From: an uncultured Gammaproteobacteria bacterium
GTDB lineage: Bacteria > Patescibacteriota > Microgenomatia > UBA10105 > UBA927
Assembly (NCBI GenBank): GCA_964609895.1
Contig: CAZSTG010000005.1
Span: 6,998 to 70,997, forward strand
Length of the DNA: 64,000 nucleotides
Direction: 5' to 3'
In this document: piece by piece, positions 680 to 61,489 of the stretch
Numbering within the stretch: the stretch's first letter is position 1
How the letters are laid out: each line of letters begins with the position of its first letter
Notes under the pieces: model-generated
Seen by the model: the letters and a program-made list of their open reading frames with translations, nothing else
Database searches by the model: none
What the model was told of the DNA's origin: nothing
Made by a program: the position numbers and the translations under genes

Positions 680-2410
680 CTATTGCCCGCTGCCGTTGTT
701 TGTAAGAAATAGTTGAATTTCCTTTGAAATATCCGTCAGTCTCTTAGAAGATCCGTCGTAGGAGAACCCTATCACCTGACCCGCGGAAAATTTTTTGTCA
801 TTGTAATCTTGCAAGAGCAACTCCTTGTCCCAATAATAGCCGAACCCCTTTCCTGAGGATTCTTCATACCATTGACTGCCAAAACCCCAGAGTCTTCTGC
901 TTACCGGCAGGAGACTATCTGGAACATTTCCCGATTTATAGTACCAAACCATCAAAATATAACCCGGATCGAGCTGCAACGGAACAGGATGATTCATGTA
1001 ATTATAGTAATTGGTATTTCCCGTCAGGTATATTACCGACTTACTGGGTAATGTCGGCAAAAGACGGGAAAATTCAGTCAATACTTGCTTGGTATCCTGA
1101 CCGTATATGACATTTAGATACACATCCCTGCGGATGAGAACCACTTGTTTATAAAAATACAACACACTTCCTGCGACTATAATTGCTGTTACCAGCAGTT
1201 TAGGAAGGGTTTTTGTAAATCTCTTGCGGAACGTATCCAAAATAATTGCCGTCATTATTCCAATCGGGATGATGCTGGCGTATACATATCTTGACTCAAC
1301 GTACGCAGTACCTCTCTGTGACAGATACACACTTATCGGAACAAAACTCAAAACGTAAAACAAAAGAGCTATAAGCAGCGTTTTTTGCTGTTTTTTATTC
1401 GTAGCATACGCAACACCGATTGTGATCGATAGGAAAAATGAGAAAACAACCGATAGAAAATCCGAAATGATGTTTTCTGATATAACACCGGCGCTATTTA
1501 TGTACGCTGCAATATTGGAATAATTAAAGTTTAAGAATCTCTCGGCCATGCGAAACATATACTTAGGAGGAATAAATGTCTGCGACAGCGATATGAATGG
1601 GTAAAAAACGGAGTTAAACAAAAATTTCAGCCAGAATGAACCGGTACTATCCGATGCCGTCAACACAATATTTTTCCCGTACATTGATATCATTCTATAG
1701 ACTCCAAGTGCAACCATCGGCAGTATCAATAGCAAATTGCTTTTCAGGATTTTTATGACACTTTGTCGGCCTTTTGAAATCAAATACTGAAAAACCGGCA
1801 AAAATATGAAAATATAGAAACTTGCATCCTTAAACAGAAAAGCCAAATAGCCGAATGCCCATGACAAAATATAATATCTTTTTTCTTCATTTTTCGAGTA
1901 CATCATCATGAACCATACGGACAACAATATGCATGTTGTTGATGTTGGCACCTGCGTAACGTTGGCTATCCATGTAAAAGCCTGATTTGCTATGCTTGCA
2001 GTCACAAAAAAGAGTCCGCTGAAAACGGCAATAAACGTATTCTTATTACATTTCTTAAGCAGGCCAAATACCAACAAACCGTTCACTATATGAAAAACAT
2101 AGGATGTTAATGCAAATGGAAGAAGATTAAATGGAAAATAATAATAGAATACATTAATAAGTAAACTCCCAAGCAATCTTCCCTTCCCCATCAGTAATTC
2201 GAAGACACTGAAATTAACAATCGTTGATTTCAAACCGTCGGTATAAATACCTGCCATAGAAAGCCATTCATCATTAAGATAATACAGCTGAGGCAATTTT
2301 TCATAGCTGTACAGCGTAATAAGGACAATGAGGACGAAATACAGAATAAAGATATATCTTTTCTTTAGATTCCCGATGAATCCGACACAAAAATCTTTAG
2401 GCTTTTTCAT
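680..2410 (-). CDS. Polytopic membrane protein with a C-terminal soluble domain, putative GT-C-type glycosyltransferase.
   Basis: 588-aa ORF (track 680..2446). The N-terminal ~400 aa are rich in hydrophobic helices ([20 protein letters not shown]...) and the C-terminal ~180 aa are hydrophilic. Start trimmed to M13 (cat at 2408-2410) to reduce overlap with fcl. Confidence 0.4.
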
Positions 2411-3359
2411 ACCCGCGGTGAACAAAGTTTTGAGTATACCAGTCAACAGTAGTTTTTAATCCTGTATCAAAGTCCGTTGTTGAGGCGAAATTAAATTCCC
2501 TTTTCGCCCGAGTGGTATCAAGCATTCTGCGCGGCTGGCCATCCGGCTTGGTTTTATCCCACACGATTTTGCCCTCATAACCGGTATACTTTTTAATCTT
2601 TTCAACCAAATCTTTTATGGATATTTCAAAACCTGCACCGATATTCACCGGATCGGATTTGTCATAGTACTCCAAAGAAAGCCTGATTGCTCTGGCAGCA
2701 TCTTCGACATACAAGAATTCACGTGTGGCTTTTCCCGTACCCCAGACGACAACCTCATTCATATGCTTTTCTTTTGCCTCTATCATACGACGGATAAGCG
2801 CGGGTATAACATGGGAAGATTCCGGATTGAAATTATCACCCGGTCCATATAAATTAACTGGCAATAAAAAGATGGAATTGAAATTATACTGCGCCCTGTA
2901 TGATTCGGATTGTACCAAAAGCATTTTTTTGGAAAGCCCATAGGGGGCATTTGTTTCCTCTGGATATCCATTCCATAAGTTTTCTTCCTTAAACGGAACT
3001 GGGGTGAATTTTGGATAACAGCAGATGGTTCCAAGAGCTACAAACTTTTCAACACCCGCCTTCCATGCTTCATGAATAAGTTGAACTCCCATCAGCAAAT
3101 TTTTGTAAAACATTTCCGCAGGATGTTCTCGATTATAGCCTATGCCGCCAACCATTGCGGCCAAATGAATAACACCATCAACTCCTTTTACCGCCTTTTT
3201 CACATCAGATAATCTGCAAAAGTTTAGCTCTTTTGAAGAAGGATAAAGCAGATGCTTTGCACCATGTTGTTGAAGCTCATGAATGACGTGCTTTCCTAAA
3301 AATCCGTTTCCTCCTGTAACAAGTATTGTCTTATTCCGTATGTCAAATGTTTTCTTCAT
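2397..3359 (-). CDS. fcl: GDP-L-fucose synthase (GDP-4-keto-6-deoxy-D-mannose 3,5-epimerase/4-reductase).
   Basis: [16 protein letters not shown] Rossmann motif plus [22 protein letters not shown] and PYGLSKK (YxxxK) follow the Fcl/GMER pattern. Start moved to the internal M (MKKTFDIR; cat 3357-3359), which is preceded by AAGAGGAG. Confidence 0.8.
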
Positions 3360-4374
3360 AATTTGTTTCTCCTCTTGATAGATACCAATAATAGTGCAGT
3401 GTAGGTTTTTTGAACACTCTAGACCATATTGTATCATCTGATACAGACCGAATATGTGTTTGTATATATCTCCGGTATCTAATAAGTGTCGGCAGCCGCC
3501 GTATATTCCACCATATGGCTCTTTGAATATTCCATGCCAGTTGATATTTCCCCTTAACCAATGAGGTCAGAAAAAACGCCTCACAGAATAGCAGATGGAT
3601 TGGCAGAATCTTTATCAACCAACCGCCGCTCAAGTTCTTTATATATGAGTGTATTCGGTTTTTAAATGAATGATATTGAATAAAGGCGTTATTCATCGAA
3701 CTGCTCGTTGCACCCATTTTATGATAGATAACGGATTTGTATGCGTACACAATCCTATACCCCGCCAGCCACACCCGATGACACATATCCGTTTCTTCAA
3801 AATACGCGAAATACGAAGGATCGAGGATATTTCCTTCAACTTCCACTTTTTTCAACACTGATTTTTTAAACATCATACACGCACCTTTTGCTGTGTAAAG
3901 GTCAATTTGTTTATCGTATTTCGGAGTATCTTTTGCGCCGAAACCGTAATGGTACAAAAATCCTGTCGGAGTTAAAAATGCCCCCACACTGTCATGTGTA
4001 TCAGGATGATCCATCAGAAGAATCTTACTTTGTGCTCCGCCGATTTTTTTGTCACTTCCCATTACTCTCACCAATTCTGTCAAAAACGTTTTTGTCACCC
4101 GTGTATCGTTATTTAAGAAAAGAATATACTCACCTTTTGCAACCTTGTACCCCACGTTATTCGCGTCAGAGAACCCAAGGTTTTCCTTATTGATGAGAAT
4201 TGTTGTTTTCGGATAGTTTTTCTTCACCCAAGATACTGATTCGTCTTTTGAAGCATTATCAACAAAGATAATTTCATAATTTTTATACTCTTGTTTGGAC
4301 AGACTATCAAAACAATCTGGTAGCCATCGAAGACCATTCCAATTAATAATAATGATTGACACTAGACCTTTCAT
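3343..4374 (-). CDS. Glycosyltransferase family 2.
   Basis: [24 protein letters not shown]...[13 protein letters not shown] is the GT2 N-terminal signature, with a DxD-like region later. There is a 4-nt ATGA overlap with the upstream gene. Confidence 0.8.
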
Positions 4375-5489
4375 GATAATCTTTCCGAATAAAACTTCTT
4401 AATAAATTTTGCGACATATGCTATCTGTTCCTGTGTGAGTTCCGGATACATCGGTAACGATACTAACTCTTCCGCATATTGTTCAGCATTTGGAAAATCT
4501 CCCTTTGTATAACCCAAATGTGAAAATGCACCGGTCAAATGAAGTGGAACGGGATAATGTATTAATGTCCCAACTCCATGATCTTTCAAATACTGCTGCA
4601 GTTCATCGCGATATTGAGCCCGAATTGCATAAATGTGAAACACACTTTGTCTGTCAGGAAGTAGCATCGGCATCACAATATCACTGCACCCATAAAGACA
4701 CTCATTATAATAGGAGGCGTTTTTTCTTCTTTGACTGTTCCATGCATCAAGATGTGACAATTTTTTACGAAGCACAGCAGCCTGAATCGAATCCAAACGG
4801 GAATTCACGCCGATAGATTCATGATGATATTTTGTTGTTTGCCCGTATTCCCTGAGCAAACGATACGTTTTGTCCAAATCATCATCATTTGTCGCAATGA
4901 CACCGCCATCCCCGTATGCACCAAGGTTCTTCCCCGGATAGAACGAAAATGCAGAAAATCTGCCGAAGGTACCTACTTTTTTGTTTTCATATACGGCGCC
5001 GTGTGCCTGACATGCGTCTTCTATAAGAAAAATTTCCTTGTTTTTTTCCTGAATCACCTGCTGAATACCTGATATATTTTCCGGTTGACCATAGAGGTGA
5101 ACTGCGATAATTGCTTTCGTTTTTTTGGTTATTTTTTTCCTAAGATCCGGCAGCGACATGCCGTAGTATTCGTCACTATCAACAAATACCGGACGAAGAT
5201 TATTACGCACTACCGCAACCGCGGTTGCATAAAACGTATTCACGGGAACGATAACCTCATCATCAGGTGACAAATGTAACGCTTCAATTCCCAAAATGAG
5301 CGCATCAGTACCTGAATTGACGGAAATGACATGTTTGACGCCTAAAAATGAAGCAAATTCTTCTTCAAAGGCGGCTACTTCCCTGCCTCCAATAAACTGC
5401 ATCTCATGAAAAATCCGACTGAATGATTCATTTACCTCAGACTGTATGGATACATATTGTTCCTGCAGATCCAGATACGGTACATTCAT
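4371..5489 (-). CDS. DegT/DnrJ/EryC1/StrS-family PLP-dependent sugar aminotransferase (FdtB-like).
   Basis: The N-terminus MNVPYLDLQEQY...EEEFASFLGVKHVISVNSGTDAL is characteristic of the DegT family. The length (372 aa) fits. Confidence 0.8.
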   Translation of the reverse strand: MNVPYLDLQEQYVSIQSEVNESFSRIFHEMQFIGGREVAAFEEEFASFLGVKHVISVNSGTDALILGIEALHLSPDDEVIVPVNTFYATAVAVVRNNLRPVFVDSDEYYGMSLPDLRKKITKKTKAIIAVHLYGQPENISGIQQVIQEKNKEIFLIEDACQAHGAVYENKKVGTFGRFSAFSFYPGKNLGAYGDGGVIATNDDDLDKTYRLLREYGQTTKYHHESIGVNSRLDSIQAAVLRKKLSHLDAWNSQRRKNASYYNECLYGCSDIVMPMLLPDRQSVFHIYAIRAQYRDELQQYLKDHGVGTLIHYPVPLHLTGAFSHLGYTKGDFPNAEQYAEELVSLPMYPELTQEQIAYVAKFIKKFYSERLS

Positions 5490-6016
5490 AGACTGTGCGT
5501 GTGGGCAATATCCTTTTTATGTTTTATAACACGGGCGGGGTTTCCGACAACCACCGCGTCATCCTCAACATCTTCGGTAACGACACTCCCTGCGCCGATA
5601 AGACAGTTTTTCCCGATATGAATGCCAGGCAGAATCGTCGCATTTGACCCGATGACAGTTCCGTCCCCCACAATAGCACCGCCTACTTCTTGGACGCATT
5701 TCGGACATGGCGGATACGGATCATCGGTAAACACAACATGGGGAGCGATAATAACGTTATTTCCGAGAGTAACCGATTCCAAAAAACACGATGTGTGAAT
5801 TTTTGTGTCATTGCCAATTTTATTACCCGGACCCAAATAGGAATTTACTCCCACCGAAACCCGATCACCGATCGTGTTCTGTTCCCGTATAACGGCATTA
5901 TGGCCGGTTACGAAACCGCTTCCATACACACTTCCGTCATAGATAACCGTCCCCGAGCGGACTATTGCATCTGGGTGCTGTTTTTTAAATGTCAGTTCAT
6001 CAATTATGTCTGCCAT
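5486..6016 (-). CDS. Hexapeptide-repeat (left-handed beta-helix) sugar N-acetyltransferase (FdtC/PglD-like).
   Basis: Repeated [LIV]G hexapeptides: VGVNSYLGPGNKIGNDTKIH...IGSNATILPGIHIGKNCLIGAGSVV. It lies between the aminotransferase and the cupin isomerase. Confidence 0.75.
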   Translation of the reverse strand: MADIIDELTFKKQHPDAIVRSGTVIYDGSVYGSGFVTGHNAVIREQNTIGDRVSVGVNSYLGPGNKIGNDTKIHTSCFLESVTLGNNVIIAPHVVFTDDPYPPCPKCVQEVGGAIVGDGTVIGSNATILPGIHIGKNCLIGAGSVVTEDVEDDAVVVGNPARVIKHKKDIAHTHSL

Positions 6017-6018
6017 AG

Positions 6019-6426
6019 CTACAGTAGTGAGTATGGAATAGTGTCCGGTGCGTCATGGTGATACGGTTTATCTGCATAATCAATCATCATTGCGGTTTCA
6101 GAAATGTTTTGAAATGCATGAGCAATATTTTTTCCTATAAATACCCGCTCGTATTCATCGTTATTCCCGTCTAAAACCCGTTCCATGCGTTCATGCGTCT
6201 TCATGTCCTCTGCAACAAGTTTCACTGTACCCGCAATCACGACAAACCACTCGTCTTTCGTCTTGTGATAATGATTTCCCCGTATGACGCCTCTTTGTTC
6301 AAAGGTCACAAAATATATCTGACCGAGTTTTTGATGGTCTTTCGACATTTCATCACCTTTAATAAAGTCAACGAGAAAACCCCGTTTATCTCTTCGTCTC
6401 ACTGCCTTATCAAAAACTATATTCAT
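6019..6426 (-). CDS. Small cupin, FdtA/WxcM-like sugar 3,4-ketoisomerase (putative).
   Basis: 135 aa with RGNHYHK...G...D motifs, resembling FdtA/QdtA-type dTDP-4-keto-6-deoxyglucose 3,4-isomerases. Sits next to an acetyltransferase and an aminotransferase, which is the fdtA-fdtC-fdtB arrangement. Confidence 0.55.
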   Translation of the reverse strand: MNIVFDKAVRRRDKRGFLVDFIKGDEMSKDHQKLGQIYFVTFEQRGVIRGNHYHKTKDEWFVVIAGTVKLVAEDMKTHERMERVLDGNNDEYERVFIGKNIAHAFQNISETAMMIDYADKPYHHDAPDTIPYSLL

Positions 6427-7418
6427 TATGTTTTCCTGTGAATCTTTTGTCTTCTTAAAATTGTAACACGCACCAGTTCAAATACCAAAGCTACGAAGGA
6501 AGCCATGGTCAACGGAAAATGATACAGCCATTCTTTCTTTCCCGTGATTATATATCCAACGACCGAAACACACAGAGGCAATACAAACAGTCCTGCATAT
6601 ATCGGCCATACCAGTTTTTTGAATTTTCTCATGGCTGAAAAATAGACGATTCTCTTTTTAATCCCGTATTCCGAGCCTAGCAGGTAATTGTCAAACGCCC
6701 ATCGCTGTTTTCTGAAATACTGAGACAATGAGGAGATGGTATGGTGTGCCACCTGAGCATGAGGGACATACGCAAGGTAATCCTTACGGGTAATCGCGTC
6801 CACAATGGGTAAAATATCGTCACCGGGATTAGCTCGTTCGTTTTCCTGTCTTCGTATCGTCGTTCCCTGCGCCAACGCAATCATCGGATAATCCACAGGC
6901 GAGAATTTATATATAATAGAATGTTCATTTTTCTGGATCGTTTGATAACATAATTCGAATGTTCTCGTATTTGACGCATTTCCATAGACAAAATGACTGA
7001 TCGGGTCGGTAAACATATTAATATATTTAGAGATCCAATAATCATTCTCTGTGCTCACCTGTATCGGATAGGTTATCATCACCCGTCCGTCCTTTTTAAA
7101 CGGGTATATGATATGAGTAATGAAGTCCGTACCGATAAGCTCGTTATCCGCAGCCAATATCGTCACGTACCGGCCGATTGCCTGTGACATACCCAGTGTT
7201 ACACCAAATTCGGCAAGTTTTTTGGGATTGTGAATGATCGTACAACCAAATTTTTTGCCTATCTCGATCGTCTGGTCTGTTGATCCGCCGTCACATAACA
7301 GAATTTCAATTTTTTCTTTCGGATACTGTTGTGCCTTGATGGAGGTAAGACAAAGCGGTAAATCCTGTTCACTATTGTATACCGGGATCACTATGGAAAG
7401 ATCAATTGATCGCGTCAT
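6426..7418 (-). CDS. Glycosyltransferase family 2 with C-terminal transmembrane helices.
   Basis: LSIVIPVYNSEQDLPLCLTSIKAQQY...LCDGGSTDQT is a GT2 signature. The C-terminus is hydrophobic (FVLPLCVSVVGYIITG). Start set at internal MTRSIDL (cat 7416-7418), directly after the upstream stop at 7420. Confidence 0.75.
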   Translation of the reverse strand: MTRSIDLSIVIPVYNSEQDLPLCLTSIKAQQYPKEKIEILLCDGGSTDQTIEIGKKFGCTIIHNPKKLAEFGVTLGMSQAIGRYVTILAADNELIGTDFITHIIYPFKKDGRVMITYPIQVSTENDYWISKYINMFTDPISHFVYGNASNTRTFELCYQTIQKNEHSIIYKFSPVDYPMIALAQGTTIRRQENERANPGDDILPIVDAITRKDYLAYVPHAQVAHHTISSLSQYFRKQRWAFDNYLLGSEYGIKKRIVYFSAMRKFKKLVWPIYAGLFVLPLCVSVVGYIITGKKEWLYHFPLTMASFVALVFELVRVTILRRQKIHRKT

Positions 7419-7419
7419 A

Positions 7420-8271
7420 TTATTTTTTACCAACATATGAGTAATATACCAACCCACAAAACCCCGCGGCAAATTCTGTGGTCTTCAAAAAAAGCATTCC
7501 TATACCCATAAAGGGATTGTGAAAAAGTTTCAGAGGATTTTTGAAAAAAAGCAGATACCGTGCAACGATGTTTGACTGTTTTCTGTAATACCCTCTGTTG
7601 GATACCTTTTGGGAATACATGTTCAGATTCTTTGCATAATAAAACTTTTTCCGCAGCGTTTTCCACAAAGACAGGCTTCCTTCATTATGCAGGATACACG
7701 ATGTAATTCTCCCGATTGCGTGTTCTCCCACCATATCATGTAAACGCTGCTGTATATCAAAGTCTTCCGGACCGGTCAACGATTCGTCATATCCGTGCAG
7801 TGCATTGAATGCTTCTTTTGCATAAAATCTGGCGGCTTCAATCCAATCAACGCCGACATAAAACGAACGTTCCAGCGCTTTGCAGTTGGCCCAAAATCCC
7901 GTTCCTATTGATATCTCCGGAATGACAAGTGCTGCCAACTTTACACCGCTTTTTTGTGACTTTATGATTTCATCGACGCATTTCTCAACGATGTCGTTTG
8001 CAAGCAGCATATCCGCATCCAAAAACAGAAGATACTCCCCTTTTGATTGCATTGCTCCAAAATTACGCTGGGCGGAACGTTCCGGCCCCTTGTCAACAAC
8101 CTGTATACCACAATTCTGAACAATTTCCCTTGTGTTATCTGAAGAATGATTGTCCACGACAATCACTTCCACATGCTTGTACGTCTGCTTGGTAATACTA
8201 TTAAGGCATGCGCCGATATGCAGCGCTTCATTTTTTGTCGTTATCACAATTGAAACAAGGGGAGTTTTCAT
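7420..8271 (-). CDS. Glycosyltransferase family 2.
   Basis: VSIVITTKNEALHIGACLNSITKQTY...VIVVDNHSSDNT, followed by LFLDADM (DxD). Confidence 0.75.
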   Translation of the reverse strand: MKTPLVSIVITTKNEALHIGACLNSITKQTYKHVEVIVVDNHSSDNTREIVQNCGIQVVDKGPERSAQRNFGAMQSKGEYLLFLDADMLLANDIVEKCVDEIIKSQKSGVKLAALVIPEISIGTGFWANCKALERSFYVGVDWIEAARFYAKEAFNALHGYDESLTGPEDFDIQQRLHDMVGEHAIGRITSCILHNEGSLSLWKTLRKKFYYAKNLNMYSQKVSNRGYYRKQSNIVARYLLFFKNPLKLFHNPFMGIGMLFLKTTEFAAGFCGLVYYSYVGKK

Positions 8272-12769: not shown

Positions 12770-13741
12770 TCATCTGTTTTTTGTGTGCAGGTGTATCTGT
12801 TTGTCTATCCACGTATAGGTCTGTCTCAGTCCTTCCTCAAGAGACACTCTTGGTTTCCACTGTAGCATACGTCTTGCTGCTTGGATATCAGCATTTCTCC
12901 CCCGTACACCCTGCGGCTTATATCTGTCGTGCGTGAGATGAATTTTTTTACCGGCAATGTCCGCAATAAGGAGTGCCATTTCATCAACGGATATCAATCT
13001 GTTAGAGCCTATGTTTACCGGCGTTCTCACCTCCGACCGCATCAATGCATCTATCCCTCTGATACAGTCATTTATATAGCAGTAAGATCGTGTTTGTTTC
13101 CCGTCCCCCCATACAGTAACAGTTCCGTTGTCCTCAGCTTCTGCGACTTTTCTGCAGAGAGCTGCGGGTGATTTTTCCCTGCCCCCTGTCCATGTTCCAA
13201 GCGGCCCATATACATTATGAAACCGCGCAATGCGCGTTTCCAACCCATAATCTTCATAATATGCAAGACACAACTGTTCCGCTGTCAGTTTCTCCCACCC
13301 ATATTTGGTATCAGGATCAGCAGGAAATGCATCGGATTCACGAAGTCCGCTATTTGCCATTCGCCGTTGCTTTTCCTTCGGATATACACATGCACTGGAA
13401 GAAAAAAAGAACCGATTCACCTTCTCGTTTTTTGCGCTCTCAAGCATGTTGATATTGATCAGCAGATTATCATGCATGATATCCGCATGCACCGAATCAA
13501 TAAATGCAACCCCTCCCATGTTTGCTGCAAAATTATATACTTCACTTACACCTCTCACAGCTTTCTTTGCATTTTTCGCGTCGCGAAGATCAAGCAGCAA
13601 ATATTCATCGGCAGCAGTTTTTTCAAACTCCGGTTTTTTGATATCTACACCACGAACACTATATCCCTTATCTTTCAAAAACTTCACCATGTGGTGACCG
13701 ATAAACCCGCCAGCTCCGGTAATAAGTGCTGTATGTTTCAT
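12770..13741 (-). CDS. NAD-dependent sugar-nucleotide epimerase resembling GDP-mannose 3,5-epimerase (GME).
   Basis: ITGAGGFIGHHMVKFLK...LLLDLRD...NFAANMGGVAFI...RFFFSSSACVYP matches the plant/bacterial GME pattern (GAGGFI...DLR...AADMGGMGFI...FFYASSACIYP) closely. Start set at MKHTALITG (cat 13739-13741). Confidence 0.55.
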   Translation of the reverse strand: MKHTALITGAGGFIGHHMVKFLKDKGYSVRGVDIKKPEFEKTAADEYLLLDLRDAKNAKKAVRGVSEVYNFAANMGGVAFIDSVHADIMHDNLLININMLESAKNEKVNRFFFSSSACVYPKEKQRRMANSGLRESDAFPADPDTKYGWEKLTAEQLCLAYYEDYGLETRIARFHNVYGPLGTWTGGREKSPAALCRKVAEAEDNGTVTVWGDGKQTRSYCYINDCIRGIDALMRSEVRTPVNIGSNRLISVDEMALLIADIAGKKIHLTHDRYKPQGVRGRNADIQAARRMLQWKPRVSLEEGLRQTYTWIDKQIHLHTKNR

Positions 13742-13746
13742 AACAT

Positions 13747-14430
13747 CTAAACAAAACGGTATTTCATAAGTGTCCAGAACGCCACCACTCCGTCTTTCCA
13801 TGTCAGTTTTTTTCCCTCGGAAAACTTCCTCCCAAAATATGAGATTGGAACCTCATAGATCTGGTGTCCTTTTTTCAGAATTTTCGCGGTTATTTCCGGT
13901 TCCATGTCAAACCGCTTTGACTCTATCCGCATTCCCGTAATCACAGCCTTCCGAAACACCTTGAATCCCGTCTCCATATCGGTAATATTGGCGTTGTACA
14001 ATATATTACACACAAGTGTCACAAATTTGTTTCCCTGCGCATACACAAACATGGTGGAAAGGTGTGGTCCGAGAAACCTTGACCCGTACACAACCTGCAC
14101 CTGTTTGTTGGTAAACGGTTCAAGAAGCACCGGATAGTCCTTCGGATCGTATTCCAGATCCGCATCCTGAAATAAAATAAAGTCTCCTGCTGCATGTTTT
14201 AGTCCAATAGTAACGGCACTTCCTTTTCCCTCATTTTTCTTTTTATATATCACTGTGACTTTTTTCTCCCATGCTTTCAATTTTTTCCTTGTCCCATCGG
14301 TTGACCCGTCATCCACGACAATAACCTGTTTGATCCAATGAGGAAGTACTGCGGCCGTGACACGACGTAAAATCTCGTCAATGGTGTGCACCTCATTGTA
14401 GACAGGGATAATAATGGATAATTTCTTCAT
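13747..14430 (-). CDS. Glycosyltransferase family 2 (Dpm1/GtrB-like, soluble).
   Basis: LSIIIPVYNEVHTIDEIL...VIVVDDGSTDGT followed by QDADLEY. Start corrected to MKKLSIII (cat 14428-14430), an ATGA overlap with the upstream gene. Confidence 0.75.
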   Translation of the reverse strand: MKKLSIIIPVYNEVHTIDEILRRVTAAVLPHWIKQVIVVDDGSTDGTRKKLKAWEKKVTVIYKKKNEGKGSAVTIGLKHAAGDFILFQDADLEYDPKDYPVLLEPFTNKQVQVVYGSRFLGPHLSTMFVYAQGNKFVTLVCNILYNANITDMETGFKVFRKAVITGMRIESKRFDMEPEITAKILKKGHQIYEVPISYFGRKFSEGKKLTWKDGVVAFWTLMKYRFV

Positions 14431-44429: not shown

Positions 44430-45875
44430 CTATTTCTCCTTTGCAACATGGACAACATCCATAATTCTTCTTTTTTCCGTCAGCCACAGAATTGCTGCAT
44501 ATAGCACAATACCTACAGCACCGATGATGATCAAACGCATCCATGTATACGGCGCAGAAGGCACCGTGACAAGATACCATCCCGATTGCACGAGGGCAGC
44601 AAAAAACGGCCATTTTACGCTGCTCATGAACGAAAAATCTGCGATCTTTTTTCCCAGCCAAACAACCAATCCCAGAGTGGAGGTCAGCAAGACCAAACTC
44701 ATTGACACCCCGTTAAACCCGAAGAAATGCACCATTGTTATTGTCAGAATCCACGTGCCTATAGTCCAAAACACCATCAAATAGAGTGTTGTCCTAATTT
44801 TGCCGACAGCGTTTAACGCATTGGTGAGTGGTGTGGAAAATCCTGCAAGAATCGATGCGACGACAAACAAAGCAAACGAAAATAGGGCAGGCTCCCATTT
44901 ACCGTATTTGGGAATCAGGGAAACGGCAGGTCCGATAAAGAACAGCAACGCCACGGAAATCGGAAACATGGTTGTAGCAAGTCCAAACAAAATTTTTTCT
45001 ATCGCGTGACCCAAATGAACTTTTGATTCCTGAAGCCGTGAGAACGCGGGGAACGTCACACGGATAACACTGTCCATAATAAGCCGTAATGGCACCTCAG
45101 CCCATTTTTTTGCCCAACCGATATACCCAACTTCTGTAAATGTTAAAATCTTACCCAGAAAAACAGTCATCAAATCGTCTTTCAGAAGCGACAAAAACGA
45201 ATTGAATTGAAACGGTACACCGAATTTGAGTAGTCGTTTTGCGACGGGCTTTGCGATACCGAAACGGATACGCCATGGAGAAACGATATACATGAGAACA
45301 AGGCCGATCAAAGCTCTTGTCAACACAGCATACGTGAAACTGGTTATGCCGAACCCCTTCCACGCCAACAACACAGCAACCGCATAAAATCCGACAGTCT
45401 CGGCAATCTGCGGAATAATCAGTGTATTAAAATTCAATTTTCTTTCCAAAAGAATGGAGGGAATGGTTTTCAGCGAAGAGAAGAAAAAAGAAACAATAAG
45501 TGCGCGGAGCAGCAGAATGCCTGCCGCATCCAGTCCATAAAATCCGGCAATATAGGGCGCGGCAATGAAAACAATGGTGCTGAGAGGCAGCACAAGCATC
45601 TGCTGAATGGTAAAGGTTGTAGACAGATCATCTTCAGACAGCTGTTCTTTTTTTTGAATCAACGCAGCCGCCAATCCCACGTCAGAGAAATACGAAAGAA
45701 ACGAAATGATTGCAGAAACCACATAATAGATACCGAATGTTGCGGGGTTCAGAAAAATCGTCAAAAGAAATGTCGAAGCAAATGCTATAATCTGCAGCAA
45801 AAACGTTCTTGAGGTCAACGCAAGAATCCCCGTCAAAGACTTTTTCTTGATGGTGGCAATATCAATTTCTTCCAT
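44430..45875 (-). CDS. Wzx-like oligosaccharide flippase (MOP superfamily).
   Basis: About 480 aa with at least 12 TM helices. ...ALIQKKEQLSEDDLSTTFTIQ is typical of Wzx N-terminal regions. Start uncertain (M29 at 45875; the track extends to 45959). Confidence 0.65.
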   Translation of the reverse strand: MEEIDIATIKKKSLTGILALTSRTFLLQIIAFASTFLLTIFLNPATFGIYYVVSAIISFLSYFSDVGLAAALIQKKEQLSEDDLSTTFTIQQMLVLPLSTIVFIAAPYIAGFYGLDAAGILLLRALIVSFFFSSLKTIPSILLERKLNFNTLIIPQIAETVGFYAVAVLLAWKGFGITSFTYAVLTRALIGLVLMYIVSPWRIRFGIAKPVAKRLLKFGVPFQFNSFLSLLKDDLMTVFLGKILTFTEVGYIGWAKKWAEVPLRLIMDSVIRVTFPAFSRLQESKVHLGHAIEKILFGLATTMFPISVALLFFIGPAVSLIPKYGKWEPALFSFALFVVASILAGFSTPLTNALNAVGKIRTTLYLMVFWTIGTWILTITMVHFFGFNGVSMSLVLLTSTLGLVVWLGKKIADFSFMSSVKWPFFAALVQSGWYLVTVPSAPYTWMRLIIIGAVGIVLYAAILWLTEKRRIMDVVHVAKEK

Positions 45876-46611
45876 ACCGTTTCGGTAGTTTTTTCCATGG
45901 TTTTGCGGTAAAAAGCCGCTGTAGCCCTTCCAGATCTCCCTGAGCTGTTTTGATAACACGAACCGTTGAGCCCGGATTATCTATCCACGTCACCGGTTCC
46001 TCATAGATACGATATCCCAATTTTTCCGCAAGAATGAGCAGTTCCGAATCAAAAAACCATGCGTTGTCAACGACGTGCGGAAGCAGCATTTTTGCGGCTT
46101 CATCAGTAATGGCTTTAAATCCGCATTGCGCATCACCAAATTTCACGAAAAACACCATTTTTATCAATAAAATATACATTTTTGACGTAAACGTGCGCAG
46201 CATGCTTCTCCCGTACACGCGGGACGCAAACGAATTCCTTGTACCGATGGCAATGTCATATCCCCGCATGAGAGACCGCACGAGCGGAGGCAAATGCTTT
46301 AAATCAGTCGACAAATCGACATCCATGTAACAATGAAGATCCGCATTTGTTTCCAGCCATGCCTTTTTTACCGCTCTTCCTCTTCCTTTTTCCTCAAGTC
46401 TGAGTACACGGACAGCTGCATATTTTTTTGCAAGCTTTTTGGATATTGCAGGAGTAGTATCGGTTGATGCGTTATCTGCAATGGTAATGGACCAACTCAC
46501 ATCAGAAAGATACGACGTCAGAAACGTGATAAGTGTTTCCGTATGCGCTTCTAGTTCGGCTTCCTCGTTATAGACAGGAATAACAATATCAAGTGTTGGC
46601 TTTTTTTCCAT
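45862..46611 (-). CDS. Glycosyltransferase family 2, Dpm1/GtrB-like polyprenyl-phosphate sugar synthase (putative).
   Basis: LDIVIPVYNEEAELEAH...ITIADNASTDTT...DVDLSTD. About 250 aa, soluble. Directly follows a PTPS-related GT-C gene. Confidence 0.7.
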   Translation of the reverse strand: MEKKPTLDIVIPVYNEEAELEAHTETLITFLTSYLSDVSWSITIADNASTDTTPAISKKLAKKYAAVRVLRLEEKGRGRAVKKAWLETNADLHCYMDVDLSTDLKHLPPLVRSLMRGYDIAIGTRNSFASRVYGRSMLRTFTSKMYILLIKMVFFVKFGDAQCGFKAITDEAAKMLLPHVVDNAWFFDSELLILAEKLGYRIYEEPVTWIDNPGSTVRVIKTAQGDLEGLQRLFTAKPWKKLPKRYGRN

Positions 46612-54879: not shown

Positions 54880-56004
54880 TTACGTCCGTTTTTTCCAGAT
54901 AACGCGGGAATACATACCGTAATTCCACAGCATCAATAGCGATGTACCGATTAAAAAGTATAGGAAATATAATGATTCTCCGAACAGACGTGTTCCCAAT
55001 TCTATTGTTCCCGTCTGAATGAAAATTACCCCGAACAGTGATGTTCCGTAAAACTGCACCAACTTCAACACATACGATTGAACCGATGTGATTTTCTGTT
55101 CCTTGAACGTCCACACGTTGTTAAGGTTAAAATTAGAAAATATTGCGGCCGCCGCGCCAATAAGGTTGGCAATTGATGCTGTCAGTCCGACCCATTCACG
55201 AAATATGACAAGAAGAACGGCATTCAGAATAAATCCGATGCCTCCGACAACCAGAAATTTTCCAAATGCTCCGTATCGGATGTCATGAACAAGTGACGAT
55301 GCCACATACAATAATACGTTTTTTATATATTCCCCCGGTGCAATTTTGGAATGTCCGTATTTCCTGTCTGTAAAATGAATCGGCACTTCTACAATCTTGG
55401 CGCCGTGGGCAATTGCCTTATGCAAAAATGCTATCTGGAATACATACCCGCTGTATGCTTTCATTTCACCGGCAAATTGCTCATAATATTTTTTCCTGTA
55501 TGCACGAAATCCGCCTGTCCAATCGTGTGTTTTGGGAAACCGTAACCCGAATCTGACAATCGCATTGCCGACAATGCTGAAAATTTTCCGGTGCAGTCCC
55601 CAGTTTTCCGGTATTGATCCGTTTTTGATATACCGGCTTCCCACAACAAAATCCGCCCCGTCATCGATGGCCTGCATAAACAAGGGGATTCGCGTAGGAT
55701 CATGGGATAAATCACAATCCATTTGTATAATAATCTCTGCCTGCAGATGCTCCACTGCATACGCCATTCCGCGAAGTAGTGCCCTTCCTAATCCTTCCTT
55801 TTTTCCTGTGATGATATGCGTATCTTTATGTGTTTTCATGTACGCATGCACAACGTCTCCGGTACCATCAGGAGACAAGTCGTCCACGACCAGAAACGCC
55901 ATCACATGATTCTTTATCCTGCCGGCCTGCTCATGAAGTGCGTCAAGCAGCGTGATAATATTTTCACGTTCATTGTACGTTGGGAGGATAATGACCGTCT
56001 TCAT
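54880..56004 (-). CDS. GT2 Dpm1/GtrB-like synthase fused to a C-terminal GtrA-like 4-TM domain.
   Basis: MKTVIILPTYNERENI...LVVDDLSPDGT...QMDCDLSHDP...VVGSRY, then GKFLVVGGIGFILNAVLLVIFREWVGLT...FSNFNLNNVWTFK, which is a GtrA-family signature. Start corrected to M44 (cat 56002-56004). Confidence 0.75.
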   Translation of the reverse strand: MKTVIILPTYNERENIITLLDALHEQAGRIKNHVMAFLVVDDLSPDGTGDVVHAYMKTHKDTHIITGKKEGLGRALLRGMAYAVEHLQAEIIIQMDCDLSHDPTRIPLFMQAIDDGADFVVGSRYIKNGSIPENWGLHRKIFSIVGNAIVRFGLRFPKTHDWTGGFRAYRKKYYEQFAGEMKAYSGYVFQIAFLHKAIAHGAKIVEVPIHFTDRKYGHSKIAPGEYIKNVLLYVASSLVHDIRYGAFGKFLVVGGIGFILNAVLLVIFREWVGLTASIANLIGAAAAIFSNFNLNNVWTFKEQKITSVQSYVLKLVQFYGTSLFGVIFIQTGTIELGTRLFGESLYFLYFLIGTSLLMLWNYGMYSRVIWKKRT

Positions 56005-56029
56005 ACAGTTTTCCGGTCCGTTTGACAGG

Positions 56030-56989
56030 TTAGACCCGTTCTCGCCAATAGTTGAGAAGGTCTTCCATTGTTTTTTCAAATGGGATTTCCGGCTTCCATC
56101 CTGTTTTTGCCACAAATTTACTATTGTCGCCAATAAGAACCGGAACTTCAGACGGACGCATACGTGCTGGATCCTGTCTGATCTCCACTTTCACTTTACT
56201 CATGCCGATAAGCATATTGAGCATGTCTTTGATCACGACTGCGTTCCCTGTACAGATATTATATACGTCTCCCGCATCGCATTTTTCAACTGCAAGCAGG
56301 TATCCTCGCACCATATCACGGACATCCGTCCAGTCCCGTTGCGCTTCAAGATTACCGACATGGATCACCGGTTCCAGTTTGCCTTTTTCTATCATCGCAA
56401 TCTGTTTTGCAAAATTGGATGTTACAAATGTCTCACCGCGTCTCGGACCGGTGTGATTGAATCCTCTTGTTCGGATAATGTTCATGCCATAGGAGCAAAA
56501 ATATTGATATCCGAGATAGTCCATGGCAACTTTTGAAACGCCGTATGGGCTCTGTGGCCGAAGCGGATTTGTCTCCTTAATCGGCACTTCATCCGGATGA
56601 ACCAACCCATATTCTTCACTTGAACATGCAATCTGGATGGCAGGATTGATTTTCGCCTGACGAACCGCTTCAAAAAGGTTTGCTGATCCGATAATGTTGA
56701 CTTCCAGTGTTACAGACGGTGATACCCATGATGTTGGAACGAAGGACTGGGCTGCAAGATGAAAAATATAATCAGGACGAATCCTTGAAATGGTTCCGTA
56801 TAAACTATGGGAATCTAAAATATCAGCATCTTCCAAATGGAGTTGTGGTTTAATGCCTTCAATAAGATCCATGCGGGATCGAGGCCTGCTTAATCCATAG
56901 ACTTCAAAACCTTTGGAAAGCAAAAGTTCCGCCATGTGGCTTCCTACGAAACCACCGATTCCTGTTATAAGTGCTTTTTTAGCTGCCAT
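56030..56989 (-). CDS. GDP-4-keto-6-deoxy-D-mannose reductase (Rmd)-like short-chain dehydrogenase.
   Basis: KKALITGIGGFVGSHMAELL...PYGVSKVAMD (YxxxK)...DPARMRPSEV...KTGWKPEI parallels Rmd (DPARMRRAE...TGWKPEI). 319 aa. AGGAGG lies 10 nt upstream. Confidence 0.6.
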   Translation of the reverse strand: MAAKKALITGIGGFVGSHMAELLLSKGFEVYGLSRPRSRMDLIEGIKPQLHLEDADILDSHSLYGTISRIRPDYIFHLAAQSFVPTSWVSPSVTLEVNIIGSANLFEAVRQAKINPAIQIACSSEEYGLVHPDEVPIKETNPLRPQSPYGVSKVAMDYLGYQYFCSYGMNIIRTRGFNHTGPRRGETFVTSNFAKQIAMIEKGKLEPVIHVGNLEAQRDWTDVRDMVRGYLLAVEKCDAGDVYNICTGNAVVIKDMLNMLIGMSKVKVEIRQDPARMRPSEVPVLIGDNSKFVAKTGWKPEIPFEKTMEDLLNYWRERV

Positions 56990-58375: not shown

Positions 58376-59260
58376 TTATACTGCTTCCTGCTTTTTTACT
58401 TCCTCAAGTCCCTCTTGTACCGTATGAAGATGTACGCCTAATGCGTCAATCCTGTCATGCCGGAGCGCCGCTTTTTTCGGAATTGCCGCCCTTCCTTTAA
58501 AAAACTCCGCATATGTCGTTTTTCCGACCAGCTGCACATCAAGACCGAACGTACGTGCGATAAGCACCATCATGTCATAAGGAGCAATCGGCTGTTCACT
58601 CGGTACATGAAAAATACCGCTCCCATTCTCTCGGACAATTGCGTCGACTGCAACTGCCAAATCGTCGATAAATGTGCATGTGAAAATCTGATCGGTCGGA
58701 GCGGCGACAGAAAGATTATCAGCCAGCCTGTTTCTTATCCGATGGACAAAATCCAACTTTGTTTTTTCGTTCATCCCTTTCGGATAGGCACGATACGGAT
58801 TTCCGATGCGGACGATCACACCCATCGCGCCCAGCTCCTTTACAGCCTCTTCTCCGTGAAATTTTGTCTCCGTATAAAAACTTAAAGGATTCGGTGTATC
58901 GTTTTCATTATATGCATCCTTCGTTCCGTCAAACACATAATCGGTTGATATATACAGCAGATGTTTTCCGAATTTCCTACACAGCGAAACGATTGATTTT
59001 GTTGCATCAACATTCACTTTCCATGCAACACTGTGTTCCCGCAAGTCTTTTTCTTTTTCAGCACCCTGTACATCTGTATATGCTGCAAAATGAAATACCC
59101 ATGGCGCATCAGATGCTGCAAACCGTTTCTCAAGTGCCGCGGCGTCCGTAATGTCAATGCCTGTCTCAAGACTCAAATTCTCAAAAGCATATGCCGACGA
59201 TAAAAGATCGACAACTCTTGATCCGACCATGCCGGTCAGTCCGGTTCCTAGAATATTCAT
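58376..59260 (-). CDS. rmlD: dTDP-4-dehydrorhamnose reductase.
   Basis: MNILGTGLTGMVGSRV...YISTDYVFDG...PLSFYTETK. 294 aa. 4-nt overlap with rmlB. Confidence 0.8.
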   Translation of the reverse strand: MNILGTGLTGMVGSRVVDLLSSAYAFENLSLETGIDITDAAALEKRFAASDAPWVFHFAAYTDVQGAEKEKDLREHSVAWKVNVDATKSIVSLCRKFGKHLLYISTDYVFDGTKDAYNENDTPNPLSFYTETKFHGEEAVKELGAMGVIVRIGNPYRAYPKGMNEKTKLDFVHRIRNRLADNLSVAAPTDQIFTCTFIDDLAVAVDAIVRENGSGIFHVPSEQPIAPYDMMVLIARTFGLDVQLVGKTTYAEFFKGRAAIPKKAALRHDRIDALGVHLHTVQEGLEEVKKQEAV

Positions 59261-60276
59261 TGCCGCTGCTCCCCATATTGTTTCTCATAATATGACTGGT
59301 ATGCACCGGTTTTTATATTTTTCCACCATTCTGTATGTTCCTGATACCAGACGACGGTTTTTTCCAGCCATGCATCAAATCCGTATTGCGGTTTCCATCC
59401 CAGTTCTTTGTTTATTTTTGTCCAGTCAATCGCATATCGTCTGTCGTGTCCGAGTCTGTCTTTGACAAACTCAATCAGCGATTCGTCGCGACCCATAATT
59501 TTCAATATCTTTTTTACTACATCAAGATTAGAAATATCTTCCGTCACGCCGCCGACACAATACGTTTCTCCGATCTTCCCACGGTTCAATACCGCATCAA
59601 TTGCCCGACAGTGATCCTCAACATACAGCCAGTCCCTGACGTTTAATCCGTCACCGTACACAGGAATAGTTTTTCCTTCCAGAATATTGGTAATTGTCAG
59701 TGGAATGAATTTCTCAGGAAATTGCAGCGGTCCATAGTTATTGGAACAATTGGTGATCGTGACGGGCAATCCGTATGTGTCATGATATGCCCGAACAATA
59801 TGGTCGGAACCTGCTTTGCTTGCCGAGTAGGGGCTATGCGGATCGTATTTCGTCAATTCATCAAATTTATTGGAACTACCCAAATCCAACGATCCGAAGA
59901 CCTCATCCGTTGAGACATGATGAAAACGTTTCACAGACAACTGTACCGCTGCTTCCAACAACACCTGTGTTCCCAGCACGTTTGTTTTCACAAAAGGGGA
60001 TGCATCAAGAATGGAGCGATCCACATGACTTTCCGCAGCAAAATGCACCACTGTATCACATCCTGTCATCGCAGCTGTTACTTCAGGAGCAATACAGATG
60101 TCGCCTTTGATAAACTGATACCGGTTGCTTTGTTCTATGCTTTTCAGGTTTTCCAGATTCCCCGCATAGGTGAGTGCATCAAAATTCACCACTGTATCAT
60201 CAGGATGCTCGCGCAACCAATAAAGGATGAAGTTTGATCCAATAAATCCTGCACCGCCTGTAACAAATAGCTTCAT
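59257..60276 (-). CDS. rmlB: dTDP-glucose 4,6-dehydratase.
   Basis: MKLFVTGGAGFIGSNF...HFAAESHVDRS...PYSASKAGSDHIVRAYHDTYGLPVTITNCSNNYGP. Start corrected to M17 (cat 60274-60276). Confidence 0.9.
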   Translation of the reverse strand: MKLFVTGGAGFIGSNFILYWLREHPDDTVVNFDALTYAGNLENLKSIEQSNRYQFIKGDICIAPEVTAAMTGCDTVVHFAAESHVDRSILDASPFVKTNVLGTQVLLEAAVQLSVKRFHHVSTDEVFGSLDLGSSNKFDELTKYDPHSPYSASKAGSDHIVRAYHDTYGLPVTITNCSNNYGPLQFPEKFIPLTITNILEGKTIPVYGDGLNVRDWLYVEDHCRAIDAVLNRGKIGETYCVGGVTEDISNLDVVKKILKIMGRDESLIEFVKDRLGHDRRYAIDWTKINKELGWKPQYGFDAWLEKTVVWYQEHTEWWKNIKTGAYQSYYEKQYGEQRQ

Positions 60277-60281
60277 ATGTT

Positions 60282-60755
60282 TTATGTTATTTTTGTATTG
60301 GTGATCGGTTTTCCCTGCACCCAATCATACCCAATCGTCTTGTCGTCATATTGAATCCGTCCTTCTTCTTTCGGATCGTATGTTTTACTTGTGGCATAAA
60401 CAAAATCACATGGACCTTCAAGAACCTTCATGCCGTGCGCGACACCTGCAGGAATTTTCAACACAATATTATCCGGTTCTTCCCCCAGTATATATTCCAT
60501 TGTTTCCCCTTTTGTCAAAGACCCCTCGCGGGTATCATAGAGTGCTGCTTTGATCTTACCTTTTACACAAAACCACCAGTCAATCTGTGTGGTGTGGACG
60601 TGCCACGCCTTGACCACGCCTTCCACCATAAATGAATGGGAAAGTTGTCCGAATCCTTCGGAAAAAAATTCATCCGTATTTCTGATAATTTCTTCAAAAT
60701 ATCCCCGTTCGTCAGGATGTCGTACCAATTTCTTAATCATCACACCGTCAATCAT
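60282..60755 (-). CDS. rmlC: dTDP-4-dehydrorhamnose 3,5-epimerase.
   Basis: RGYFEEIIRNTD...AWHVHTTQIDWWFCVKGKIKAALYDTR. 157 aa cupin. Confidence 0.85.
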   Translation of the reverse strand: MIDGVMIKKLVRHPDERGYFEEIIRNTDEFFSEGFGQLSHSFMVEGVVKAWHVHTTQIDWWFCVKGKIKAALYDTREGSLTKGETMEYILGEEPDNIVLKIPAGVAHGMKVLEGPCDFVYATSKTYDPKEEGRIQYDDKTIGYDWVQGKPITNTKIT

Positions 60756-61489
60756 ATGGTTCCTTTCTTCATTTTTTCCGCTACCTGATTGTTTGCGCGC
60801 AAAAGCTCATCATACGACGTTCCCGCATCCACCCACCAGTCAATGATCTCACAAGTCAATTTTCCGTCACGAAGATACATGTTATTCAGATCCGTCACTT
60901 CCAGTTCACCCCGTGCAGAAGGCGATAGCTGCTTGATGTAGTCAAACACTTTATTGTCGTACATGTAAATACCGGTTTGCGCAATATCGGATTTCGGCGC
61001 AGACGGTTTTTCTTCTATGGACAACACGTTTCCTTTATCATCCACTTCAATAACACCATATTGTTTTGCATCCATGTGCATATGGATACCAAACACTTTT
61101 GCGCCTGTTTTTTGCTTTTCAAACGCCTCGACCGCCGGACGGAGATTATAGTCAAATATGTTATCGCCGAGAATAACCATAAGCGGCTCATCATGGGTAA
61201 ACTCTTCAGCAAGCGCAATCGCGTCGGCGATTCCCCCTTTAGGGTTATTCTGCACGCCGTAATACAGACGCATGCCGAATTCTTCACCGGATGTCAGGAG
61301 ATTGGCAAACTGTGCGATCGATTCCCCGCCTGTAGTAAGCAGTACTTCTTTCACACCTGCCCGTTGCATGGCTTCTATCGGATAGTAAATCATCGGTTTG
61401 TTATATACCGGCAACAAATGCTTGTTTGTCACAAGCGTCAACGGACGAAGTCGGGTTGCCAAACCTCCAGCTAATATTAATCCCTGCAT
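60752..61489 (-). CDS. rmlA: Glucose-1-phosphate thymidylyltransferase (short form).
   Basis: MQGLILAGGLATRLRPLTLVTNKHLLPVYNKPMIYYPIE...ILGDNIF. AAGGAG RBS upstream. Confidence 0.85.
   Translation of the reverse strand: MQGLILAGGLATRLRPLTLVTNKHLLPVYNKPMIYYPIEAMQRAGVKEVLLTTGGESIAQFANLLTSGEEFGMRLYYGVQNNPKGGIADAIALAEEFTHDEPLMVILGDNIFDYNLRPAVEAFEKQKTGAKVFGIHMHMDAKQYGVIEVDDKGNVLSIEEKPSAPKSDIAQTGIYMYDNKVFDYIKQLSPSARGELEVTDLNNMYLRDGKLTCEIIDWWVDAGTSYDELLRANNQVAEKMKKGTI

Follow-up and report, generated by a model that had tools for sequence, protein, structure and literature searches.

The stretch of DNA analysed here (the window, 64,000 nucleotides (nt)) covers positions 6,998 to 70,997 of contig CAZSTG010000005.1 (assembly GCA_964609895.1), deposited as an uncultured Gammaproteobacteria bacterium and placed by GTDB in the Patescibacteriota (Microgenomatia, UBA927). 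The names carried by near-identical proteins fit a Microgenomates-type Patescibacteria genome. Reading of the sequence and of the list of open reading frames (ORFs) reveals a run of minus-strand genes encoding, in order of transcription, a family 2 glycosyltransferase (GT2up), a cupin, an acetyltransferase, a DegT-family aminotransferase, a second family 2 glycosyltransferase (GT2dn), an Fcl-like short-chain dehydrogenase/reductase (SDR) and a PMT_2-like membrane protein (Table 1). The last base of the GT2up stop codon (TAA) is the first base of the cupin ATG (6426, a 1-nt overlap); the cupin stop codon (TAG, 6021-6019) is followed by CT and then by the acetyltransferase ATG at 6016, which leaves a 2-nt gap; the acetyltransferase stop and the DegT start have ATGA in common (4-nt overlap, 5489-5486), as do the DegT stop and the GT2dn start (4374-4371). 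From the 1-base overlap between GT2up and the cupin together with these downstream junctions, at least six genes are therefore taken to be translationally coupled. The domain matches of the cupin, acetyltransferase and DegT trio and of its neighbours are far beyond chance, with Pfam E-values of 4.7e-111 for DegT_DnrJ_EryC1, 1.5e-55 for Epimerase, 6.4e-26 for GT2, 1.9e-19 for Hexapep and 4.5e-17 to 2.9e-10 for the cupin families.

A preliminary description of the window, made from the sequence alone, had given the same coordinates, strand, 2-nt gap and 4-nt overlaps for the trio, and these were confirmed. It had also placed a GT2 gene and an fcl gene directly downstream: both are present, but the start of the latter moves from 3437 to 3359. 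The true start of this ORF (2397-3437) is almost certainly the ATG at 3359 (Met27), which is preceded by the Shine-Dalgarno-like GAGGAG; a gene call made independently on a Logan contig of identical sequence is 320 amino acids (aa) long, and the family matches begin at ORF residue 35.

Table 1. Features of the window discussed in the text, with the scores on which their naming rests.
Feature	Coordinates	Strand	Evidence
Polytopic membrane protein, weak PMT_2 (GT-C-like) match, next operon gene	680..2410	-	PF13231 26.1 bits, at threshold; ~9 transmembrane-like segments; 576-aa gene call
Fcl-like extended SDR, 320 aa	2397..3359	-	NF047922 285 bits; PDB Fcl entries
GT2dn glycosyltransferase, translationally coupled to DegT	3343..4374	-	PF00535 91.7 bits; ATGA overlap
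Predicted pyridoxal phosphate (PLP)-dependent sugar 3-aminotransferase, 372 aa, QdtB/FdtB/DesV/WlaRG clade	4371..5489	-	PF01041 371.9 bits
Predicted left-handed beta-helix (LbH) N-acetyltransferase, 176 aa, short QdtC/FdtC-like form	5486..6016	-	Hexapep 68.9 bits; QdtC best PDB match
Single-domain cupin, 135 aa, predicted nucleoside diphosphate (NDP)-4-keto-6-deoxyhexose 3,4-ketoisomerase	6019..6426	-	CapF-related clade; H52/H54/E59/H103 motif
GT2up glycosyltransferase	6426..7436	-	PF00535 73.5 bits; 336-aa gene call on identical contig
GME-like gene	12770-13801		329 bits to Arabidopsis GME
RMD-like SDR, dehydratase-type PRRG motif	56030-56989	-	2pk3 (A. thermoaerophilus RMD) 305 bits vs GMDs 160-177
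ugd	57056-58354		
rmlA-like/rmlC/rmlB/rmlD block, predicted supply of dTDP-4-keto-6-deoxyglucose (and dTDP-L-rhamnose)	58376..61489	-	
RmlD	58376-59260	-	
RmlB	59257-60324	-	TIGR01181 475 bits, cut-off 365
RmlC	60282-60755	-	PF00908 91.5 bits
RmlA-like, 245 aa	60752-61489	-	TIGR01207 245 bits, cut-off 360

Comparison with PDB sequences argues strongly that the DegT protein is a sugar 3-aminotransferase. Its top matches are all enzymes of this kind (222-370 bits) and include 7b0d (370 bits), QdtB (317), DesV (313), 7n63 (284), the C. jejuni protein 5u1z (273), 3uwc (264) and WbpE (226), whereas the 4-aminotransferases trail by at least 57 bits, the best of them being the perosamine synthase Per (165), followed by the PseC-type 2fn6 (117), ArnB (103) and the PglE-type 1o61 (101), with WecE in the range of 101-117. 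The lysine expected to hold PLP, K187, is present in the motif FYPGK187NLG. A literature search on 7b0d, the top match, and on 7b0m gave nothing useful on substrate. Were the protein a 4-aminotransferase instead, the product would be a 4-acetamido-4,6-dideoxyhexose of the Qui4NAc or Fuc4NAc type and the cupin an accessory. The best NCBIfam names do point in this direction (PseC, 221 bits; WecE-type, 192 bits; all under their cut-offs), although such names top the list because NCBIfam is without a 3-aminotransferase model. Given the gap between the scores with structures of the two groups, and an acetyltransferase that resembles 3-N-acetyltransferases and not the PglD/PerB/VioB class, we consider this alternative highly improbable. 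The clustering with 4-aminotransferases (ArnB/PglE) that the preliminary description had named as fatal to its reading is thus not what the PDB sequences give, the protein falling with QdtB and DesV and away from ArnB, PglE, PseC and Per.

There are likewise good grounds to predict that the LbH protein is a QdtC-like 3-N-acetyltransferase, in agreement with the FdtC/QdtC kind of hexapeptide enzyme first proposed. Its best PDB matches are QdtC (110 bits, E=8.5e-31), the acetyltransferase domain of the FdtD/WxcM-like 4mzu (78.8), 7s43 (72.7) and WlbB (63), all of them 3-amino-sugar N-acetyltransferases, while the PglD/PerB/VioB class reaches ~30-36 bits (PerB 30, VioB 36). The protein is shorter than the 273-aa QdtC chain, and the alignment is limited to QdtC residues 76-222.

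The cupin does not fit the "canonical" FdtA/FdtC/FdtB trio of the preliminary description. Used as a single sequence against Pfam it matches PF14667 best (62.6 bits), and FdtA PF05523 (40.6, cut-off 23) and RmlC PF00908 (40.5) are tied below; with an identity to FdtA and QdtA of ~20-22%, the comparison indicates that it is not their orthologue. PF14667 ('Polysacc_synt_C', 111 positions), whose family name gives a wrong idea of the domain, is the best Pfam model both for these cupins and for CapF-type cupin fusions. The protein does not behave as an RmlC paralogue either, the other outcome considered at the outset. It scores 31.2 bits with the RmlC equivalog TIGR01221, far under the cut-off of 155.75, and shares only 27 bits with the RmlC of the window by phmmer; moreover, as a single domain it belongs to the size class of ketoisomerases (~135-145 aa) and is without the N- and C-terminal extensions of RmlC. 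Because a separate RmlC is encoded between rmlA and rmlB, the cupin is not needed in that capacity or for rhamnose synthesis. It is neither fused nor adjacent to an SDR 4-reductase, being flanked by GT2up and the acetyltransferase.

Loci encoding relatives of the cupin (80 from species-representative genomes, plus several metagenome contigs) were searched with the window proteins; context was counted in the 32 loci whose cupin is at least 39% identical to that of the window and has at least 3 kb of flank on both sides. An orthologue of the window DegT protein (at least 250 bits) lies within 5 kb in 27/32 of these loci, a QdtC-like acetyltransferase is found within 3 kb of the cupin in 21, and one or the other is near the cupin in 29. 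The commonest order, GT2-cupin-acetyltransferase-DegT (16 loci), is that of the window, and an orthologue of GT2up (at least 120 bits) is located no more than 200 nt upstream of the cupin in 19 of 53 related loci. The substrate of a 3-aminotransferase is a 3-keto sugar, and in the related loci no gene other than that of the cupin recurs as a candidate for forming it; the cupin is therefore read as the ketoisomerase.

Cupins below 39% identity (from Nitrospinota, archaea and others) are found in another setting, next to RmlD-, Fcl- or GME-like SDRs, with a DegT gene nearby in 4/18 cases. In this sister clade (loci L056-L084, from Nitrospinota, Methanosarcinales, Woesearchaeota and others) the cupin neighbours extended SDRs or is fused to them, and SDR-cupin fusions with the architecture of CapF were also retrieved (P0196, 493 aa; P0267, 433 aa); such linkage or fusion to an SDR was confined to cupins below 39% identity. 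These SDR-linked systems look like split or fused CapF-type epimerase/reductases. The two clades are separated by their profiles. A hidden Markov model (HMM) of the DegT-linked cupins gives 49.6 bits each for FdtA and the Helicobacter canadensis ketoisomerase 7n67, 43.1 for CapF and 33-39 for RmlC, whereas the HMM of the SDR-linked clade gives 90.2 bits for CapF and 28-34 for ketoisomerases. Residues also mark the DegT-linked cupins, namely R94 (present in 40/41 vs 12/42) and W/Y122.

The same tendency was observed with a profile built from 52 sequences of the cupin family and searched against the PDB: it places 7n67 (40.8 bits) and FdtA (38.5, aligned over its full length) above CapF (34) and RmlC (31), which reverses the single-sequence order, by a margin over CapF of 5-7 bits only. 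The cupin residues H52, H54 and H103 align with FdtA His49/His51/His95 (chain numbering offset by 2) and are invariant in 83 relatives; in FdtA these histidines form an active-site cluster and are proposed to shuttle a proton between C3 and C4 (PMC2943079). The segment G46-x5-H52-Y-H54-x4-E59-x6-G66 is an exact cupin motif 1 (G-x5-H-x-H-x4-E-x6-G), H103 is the histidine of motif 2, and all of these positions are invariant in the family. Glu59 is replaced by Gln at the equivalent position in FdtA and 7n67, while the Zn-binding CapF cupin has the same Glu at identical spacing, its GNHWHH...E...H motif being aligned. Cupin-type phosphoglucose isomerases work with the assistance of a metal, and the motif of three His and one Glu suggests, as a speculation, that this cupin may do so too. 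The AlphaFold model of the cupin is of high confidence (predicted local distance difference test score (pLDDT) 95.7), and its target-normalised template modelling (TM) scores are 0.75 with QdtA, 0.77 with 7n67 and 0.72 with FdtA, against 0.5-0.6 with RmlCs. We infer the ketoisomerase role from gene context, conserved histidines and profile scores, and not from orthology.

The precursor would come from the rml block. According to a phmmer sweep of all window ORFs, the window holds only five extended SDRs, one nucleotidyltransferase, one DegT protein, one LbH protein and two cupins. RmlB is the only clear 4,6-dehydratase among them and stands above its curated cut-off, and the RmlA-like protein is encoded alongside, in agreement with the supply of dTDP-4-keto-6-deoxyglucose from 59-61 kb suggested by the preliminary description. 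The RmlA-like protein is a short form that scores under its own cut-off, which leaves its specificity, for both the sugar-1-phosphate and the nucleotide, less certain than that of RmlB. The rmlCD, Rmd-like, GME-like and ugd genes were all located (Table 1); the monosaccharide composition that had been read from them for the glycan is speculation.

Altogether, these data lead us to propose, with a probability of roughly 70%, that the trio makes an NDP-3-acetamido-3,6-dideoxyhexose for a surface glycan, through a translationally coupled GT2-cupin-acetyltransferase-DegT-GT2 segment in which the cupin is the ketoisomerase and the substrate is a dTDP-sugar. The RmlA-like protein and RmlB would produce dTDP-4-keto-6-deoxy-D-glucose, the most likely substrate. 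The cupin would then turn this 4-keto sugar into the 3-keto sugar through an enediol(ate), presumably using His52/His54/His103, with a metal probably held by His52/His54/Glu59/His103. The DegT enzyme, by strong homology, would transaminate C3 with PLP on Lys187; the QdtC-like LbH enzyme, for which the homology is good, would N-acetylate the 3-amino group; and the flanking GT2s, to judge from conserved adjacency and fusions, would transfer the sugar to the surface glycan. In substance this is the pathway first described, fed by RmlAB and accompanied by an Fcl-type enzyme, and the DegT, LbH and RmlB scores bear it out. His103 and Arg15 of the cupin sit where the inverting FdtA has His95 and Arg15 and the retaining QdtA has Arg97 and Tyr17 (cf. 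the engineered QdtA Y17R/R97H, 4zu7). This is a weak hint of an inverting outcome, that is of Fuc3NAc over Qui3NAc; it is weak because both residues are ancestral in the superfamily.

Several observations weigh against this assignment. The best Pfam model of the cupin is not that of FdtA, and in single-sequence searches of the PDB the CapF cupin domain and an archaeal RmlC come first (~31 bits each), followed by the 5tpu protein (24) and QdtA (22). The invariant Glu59 and the GNHYH motif appear CapF-like, and Foldseek, run with the predicted model, does not distinguish the epimerases and the isomerases: its E-values for RmlC, ChmJ, CapF, QdtA, FdtA and 7n67 all lie between 6e-9 and 1e-7. We know of no enzymology for any member of this cupin clade. 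Linkage of rmlA/rmlB to the module is essentially absent from the related loci (1/53); because of this, and because the two genes lie 52 kb away in the window, the nucleotide carrier is itself something we infer. A fusion of the cupin with an acetyltransferase occurs in a single locus out of 85 (L050, described below), so that Rosetta-stone evidence is thin. Finally, in locus L005 (Logan SRR29054603_25621, 6001-7047) the cupin adjoins an LbH acetyltransferase with no DegT gene within 6 kb, its neighbours being radical-SAM/B12 proteins, a UDP-GlcNAc 2-epimerase and a PMT_2 protein.

Part of this evidence would be expected if the cupin were a CapF-type C3-epimerase or an RmlC-type 3,5-epimerase, with the shift from the 4-keto to the 3-keto sugar occurring spontaneously or on the aminotransferase. 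The single-sequence PDB matches and the GNHxH...E motif agree with such a role, as does the tightest core superposition of the model, which Foldseek gives with CapF (root-mean-square deviation of 1.2-1.5 A over 102 columns); the SDR-linked or SDR-fused state of the sister clade, like that of CapF, points the same way. A GDP-4-keto-6-deoxy sugar is also reported to undergo 3,4-ketoisomerisation slowly on its own, and some 3-amino sugar pathways are without a known isomerase (PMC8944477). On the other hand, the profiles of the DegT-linked clade put ketoisomerases above CapF and RmlC, the clade has its own R94 and W/Y122, and an RmlC is already available in the window. The tight and recurrent pairing with a 3-aminotransferase, and with no reductase, is what is expected of an isomerase, and we regard the epimerase as unlikely.

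The module might also act on another nucleotide sugar, either converting GDP-4-keto-6-deoxymannose to GDP-3-acetamido-3,6-dideoxymannose (of the N-acetyl-mycosamine type) or using a UDP-4-keto-6-deoxy-HexNAc. The nearest SDRs are GDP-sugar enzymes (the Fcl-like one two genes downstream, and the GME and RMD/GMD-like ones in the cluster), rmlAB are unlinked to the module in other genomes, and CapF, a relative of the cupin, reportedly uses a UDP-sugar. However, the aminotransferase is nearer to the dTDP-sugar enzymes QdtB and DesV than to GDP-perosamine synthase or the UDP-specific WbpE, and the acetyltransferase is nearest to the dTDP-specific QdtC; in addition, RmlB is the one 4,6-dehydratase of the window above a curated threshold, and the phmmer sweep detected no UDP-GlcNAc 4,6-dehydratase there. 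A substrate other than a dTDP-sugar therefore seems distinctly unlikely to us.

A bolder reading, which we offer tentatively and at somewhat less than even odds, is that the cupin represents an unrecognised class of metal-dependent 3,4-ketoisomerases, which arose from epimerase cupins of the CapF type, separately from the metal-free FdtA/QdtA/Tyl1a family, and residing in a module widespread in Patescibacteria (the candidate phyla radiation (CPR)). In a further version, it may be the long-sought 3,4-ketoisomerase for GDP-4-keto-6-deoxymannose or another non-dTDP substrate. The clade is rare, with ~295 cluster representatives at E <= 1e-10 among 1.84 billion representatives of 50% identity clusters, and its members are labelled "RmlC-like" or unnamed in public databases.

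Compared with the FdtA/FdtB/FdtC system of Aneurinibacillus thermoaerophilus (dTDP-Fuc3NAc) and the QdtA/QdtB/QdtC system of Thermoanaerobacterium thermosaccharolyticum (dTDP-Qui3NAc), the window has the same three predicted chemistries side by side, RmlA and RmlB in the same cluster, the active-site histidines of FdtA, and QdtB and QdtC among the best PDB matches. It differs in its non-orthologous cupin with Glu59 for the Gln of FdtA, in its short acetyltransferase, and in a membrane-anchored GT2 that is integral to the module and sometimes fused. With the C-terminal cupin of CapF (Cap5F) from Staphylococcus aureus, a Zn-binding C3-epimerase of UDP-4-keto-6-deoxy-HexNAc, the cupin shares GNH(Y/W)H...E...H, and its best Pfam and NCBIfam matches cover this very domain; unlike CapF, it stands alone, its partners being an aminotransferase and an acetyltransferase and not a reductase, and the strong resemblance to CapF belongs to the SDR-linked sister clade whereas the DegT-linked profile favours ketoisomerases. 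The third comparison is with the bifunctional N-acetyltransferase-isomerase FdtD/WxcM (PDB 4mzu), whose LbH domain ranks second among the PDB matches of the window acetyltransferase. A similar fusion exists in the cupin family of the window: in a WWE3 bacterium (GW2011_GWC2_41_23, LCBB01000002, L050 9989-10978) an ORF of 329 aa combines an N-terminal cupin with a C-terminal FdtD-like LbH acetyltransferase, and the DegT gene overlaps its end. The order of domains is reversed with respect to FdtD/WxcM, and the window encodes cupin and acetyltransferase separately.

The 3-acetamido-3,6-dideoxyhexoses are known bacterial surface sugars and the pathway itself is ordinary; what deserves notice is that the isomerase step is seemingly filled by an unstudied, rare, CapF-related cupin clade. 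If true, this would amount to a second, probably metal-assisted, route to sugar 3,4-ketoisomerisation. Glycan clusters of CPR bacteria, a group with hardly any characterised envelopes, could then be better annotated, and the module could serve as a marker from which to predict 3-amino sugars in lineages that are uncultured.

GT2up appears to belong to this module. Metagenome contigs encode a GT2-cupin fusion (P0129, 471 aa) and a cupin-GT2 fusion (P0133, 313 aa), which together with the adjacency of the two genes suggest that glycosyltransferase and cupin work as a unit. The product sugar is probably transferred by GT2up, in which an N-terminal GT-A domain is followed by two C-terminal helices, seen as transmembrane-like segments at ORF residues 286-312 and 316-339; its profile aligns with generic GT2 structures over no more than roughly their first 100 residues. 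We considered GT2up as a polyprenyl-phosphate glycosyltransferase of the ArnC/GtrB/DPMS type, as in an Arn-like module, and rejected this since the 20-sequence profile covers only those generic N-terminal residues, ArnC and GtrB scoring 30 bits; the architecture is nonetheless compatible with that type.

An SDR as a constant fifth member of the module was also rejected, as the SDRs near related cupins, though frequent, are heterogeneous (GalE-like, dehydratase-like, Fcl/GME-like) and none of them is core; the Fcl-like gene of the window is therefore treated as a separate pathway. Its product is probably a GDP-4-keto-6-deoxymannose 3,5-epimerase/4-reductase of the GDP-L-fucose synthase type, and we take it for an independent GDP-6-deoxy-L-hexose synthase outside the conserved module. 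In support of the initial fcl assignment, it scores 213-223 bits with PDB Fcl entries and is 37% identical over 313 residues to E. coli Fcl, whose 219-bit score fits the PDB Fcl entries (1bsv). The residues T/C/Y/K/H align to the catalytic S107/C109/Y136/K140/H179 of the E. coli enzyme (Fcl/GMER). Unlike the latter, the protein remains below the cut-off of the GDP-L-fucose synthase equivalog NF047922 (500 bits) and has no conventional gmd nearby.

The preliminary description had remarked that gmd (GDP-mannose 4,6-dehydratase) is missing from the window although fcl and rmd need its product. This stands for a separate gmd, since neither it nor manC was recovered by the phmmer sweep, but the RMD-like SDR may perform the step, although its closest match overall is the A. 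thermoaerophilus RMD 2pk3. Its motif reads NHTGPRRGETFVT, like NHESPRRGETFVT of E. coli GMD, while both solved RMDs (2pk3, 6x3b) have GPGQ; at this position E. coli GMD has PRRG, P. aeruginosa GMD PLRG, the C. jejuni heptose dehydratase PRRS and the RMDs PGQ, and the window protein PRRG. The position of Arg185 of P. aeruginosa GMD, within NH(E/T)(S/G)P-x-R-G, is reportedly significant, with Arg in dehydratases and Gln in RMDs. Proteins at least 90% identical to the RMD-like SDR bear the NCBI name GDP-mannose 4,6-dehydratase (Microgenomates, Gottesmanbacteria), and bifunctionality of the reverse kind is described for P. aeruginosa GMD (PMC3584063). The RMD-like SDR may thus be a GDP-mannose 4,6-dehydratase or a bifunctional GMD/RMD that itself supplies GDP-4-keto-6-deoxymannose, and the "missing gmd" may be partly a naming artefact. 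An RMD-like enzyme with a dehydratase-type motif would offer a simple explanation for the "missing" gmd in small genomes.

Some related loci carry additional genes. In L003 (6408-9789) and L004 (Logan SRR22388339 / SRR22387915), the cupin is separated from a 263-aa LbH acyltransferase by genes for a 3-hydroxyacyl-CoA dehydrogenase and a thiolase, which suggests an on-site supply of 3-hydroxybutanoyl-CoA and an N-(3-hydroxybutanoyl) instead of an N-acetyl amino sugar. In L034 (13978-15306), RfbH (CDP-6-deoxy-D-xylo-4-hexulose 3-dehydrase, 537 bits) directly follows the module, so that 3,6-dideoxyhexose and 3-amino-sugar genes are clustered. As for the window, nearly the whole of it (1-64000) is one minus-strand glycosylation super-cluster with at least 14 GT2, 3 GT4 and ~10 large polytopic PMT_2/YfhO/PTPS_related (GT-C-like) proteins, which also holds a Wzx-like flippase (44430-45959), a GtrA-fused GT2 (54880-56133), rmlACBD, ugd and GME, and which takes up a very large share of a CPR genome whose size is probably ~1 Mb.

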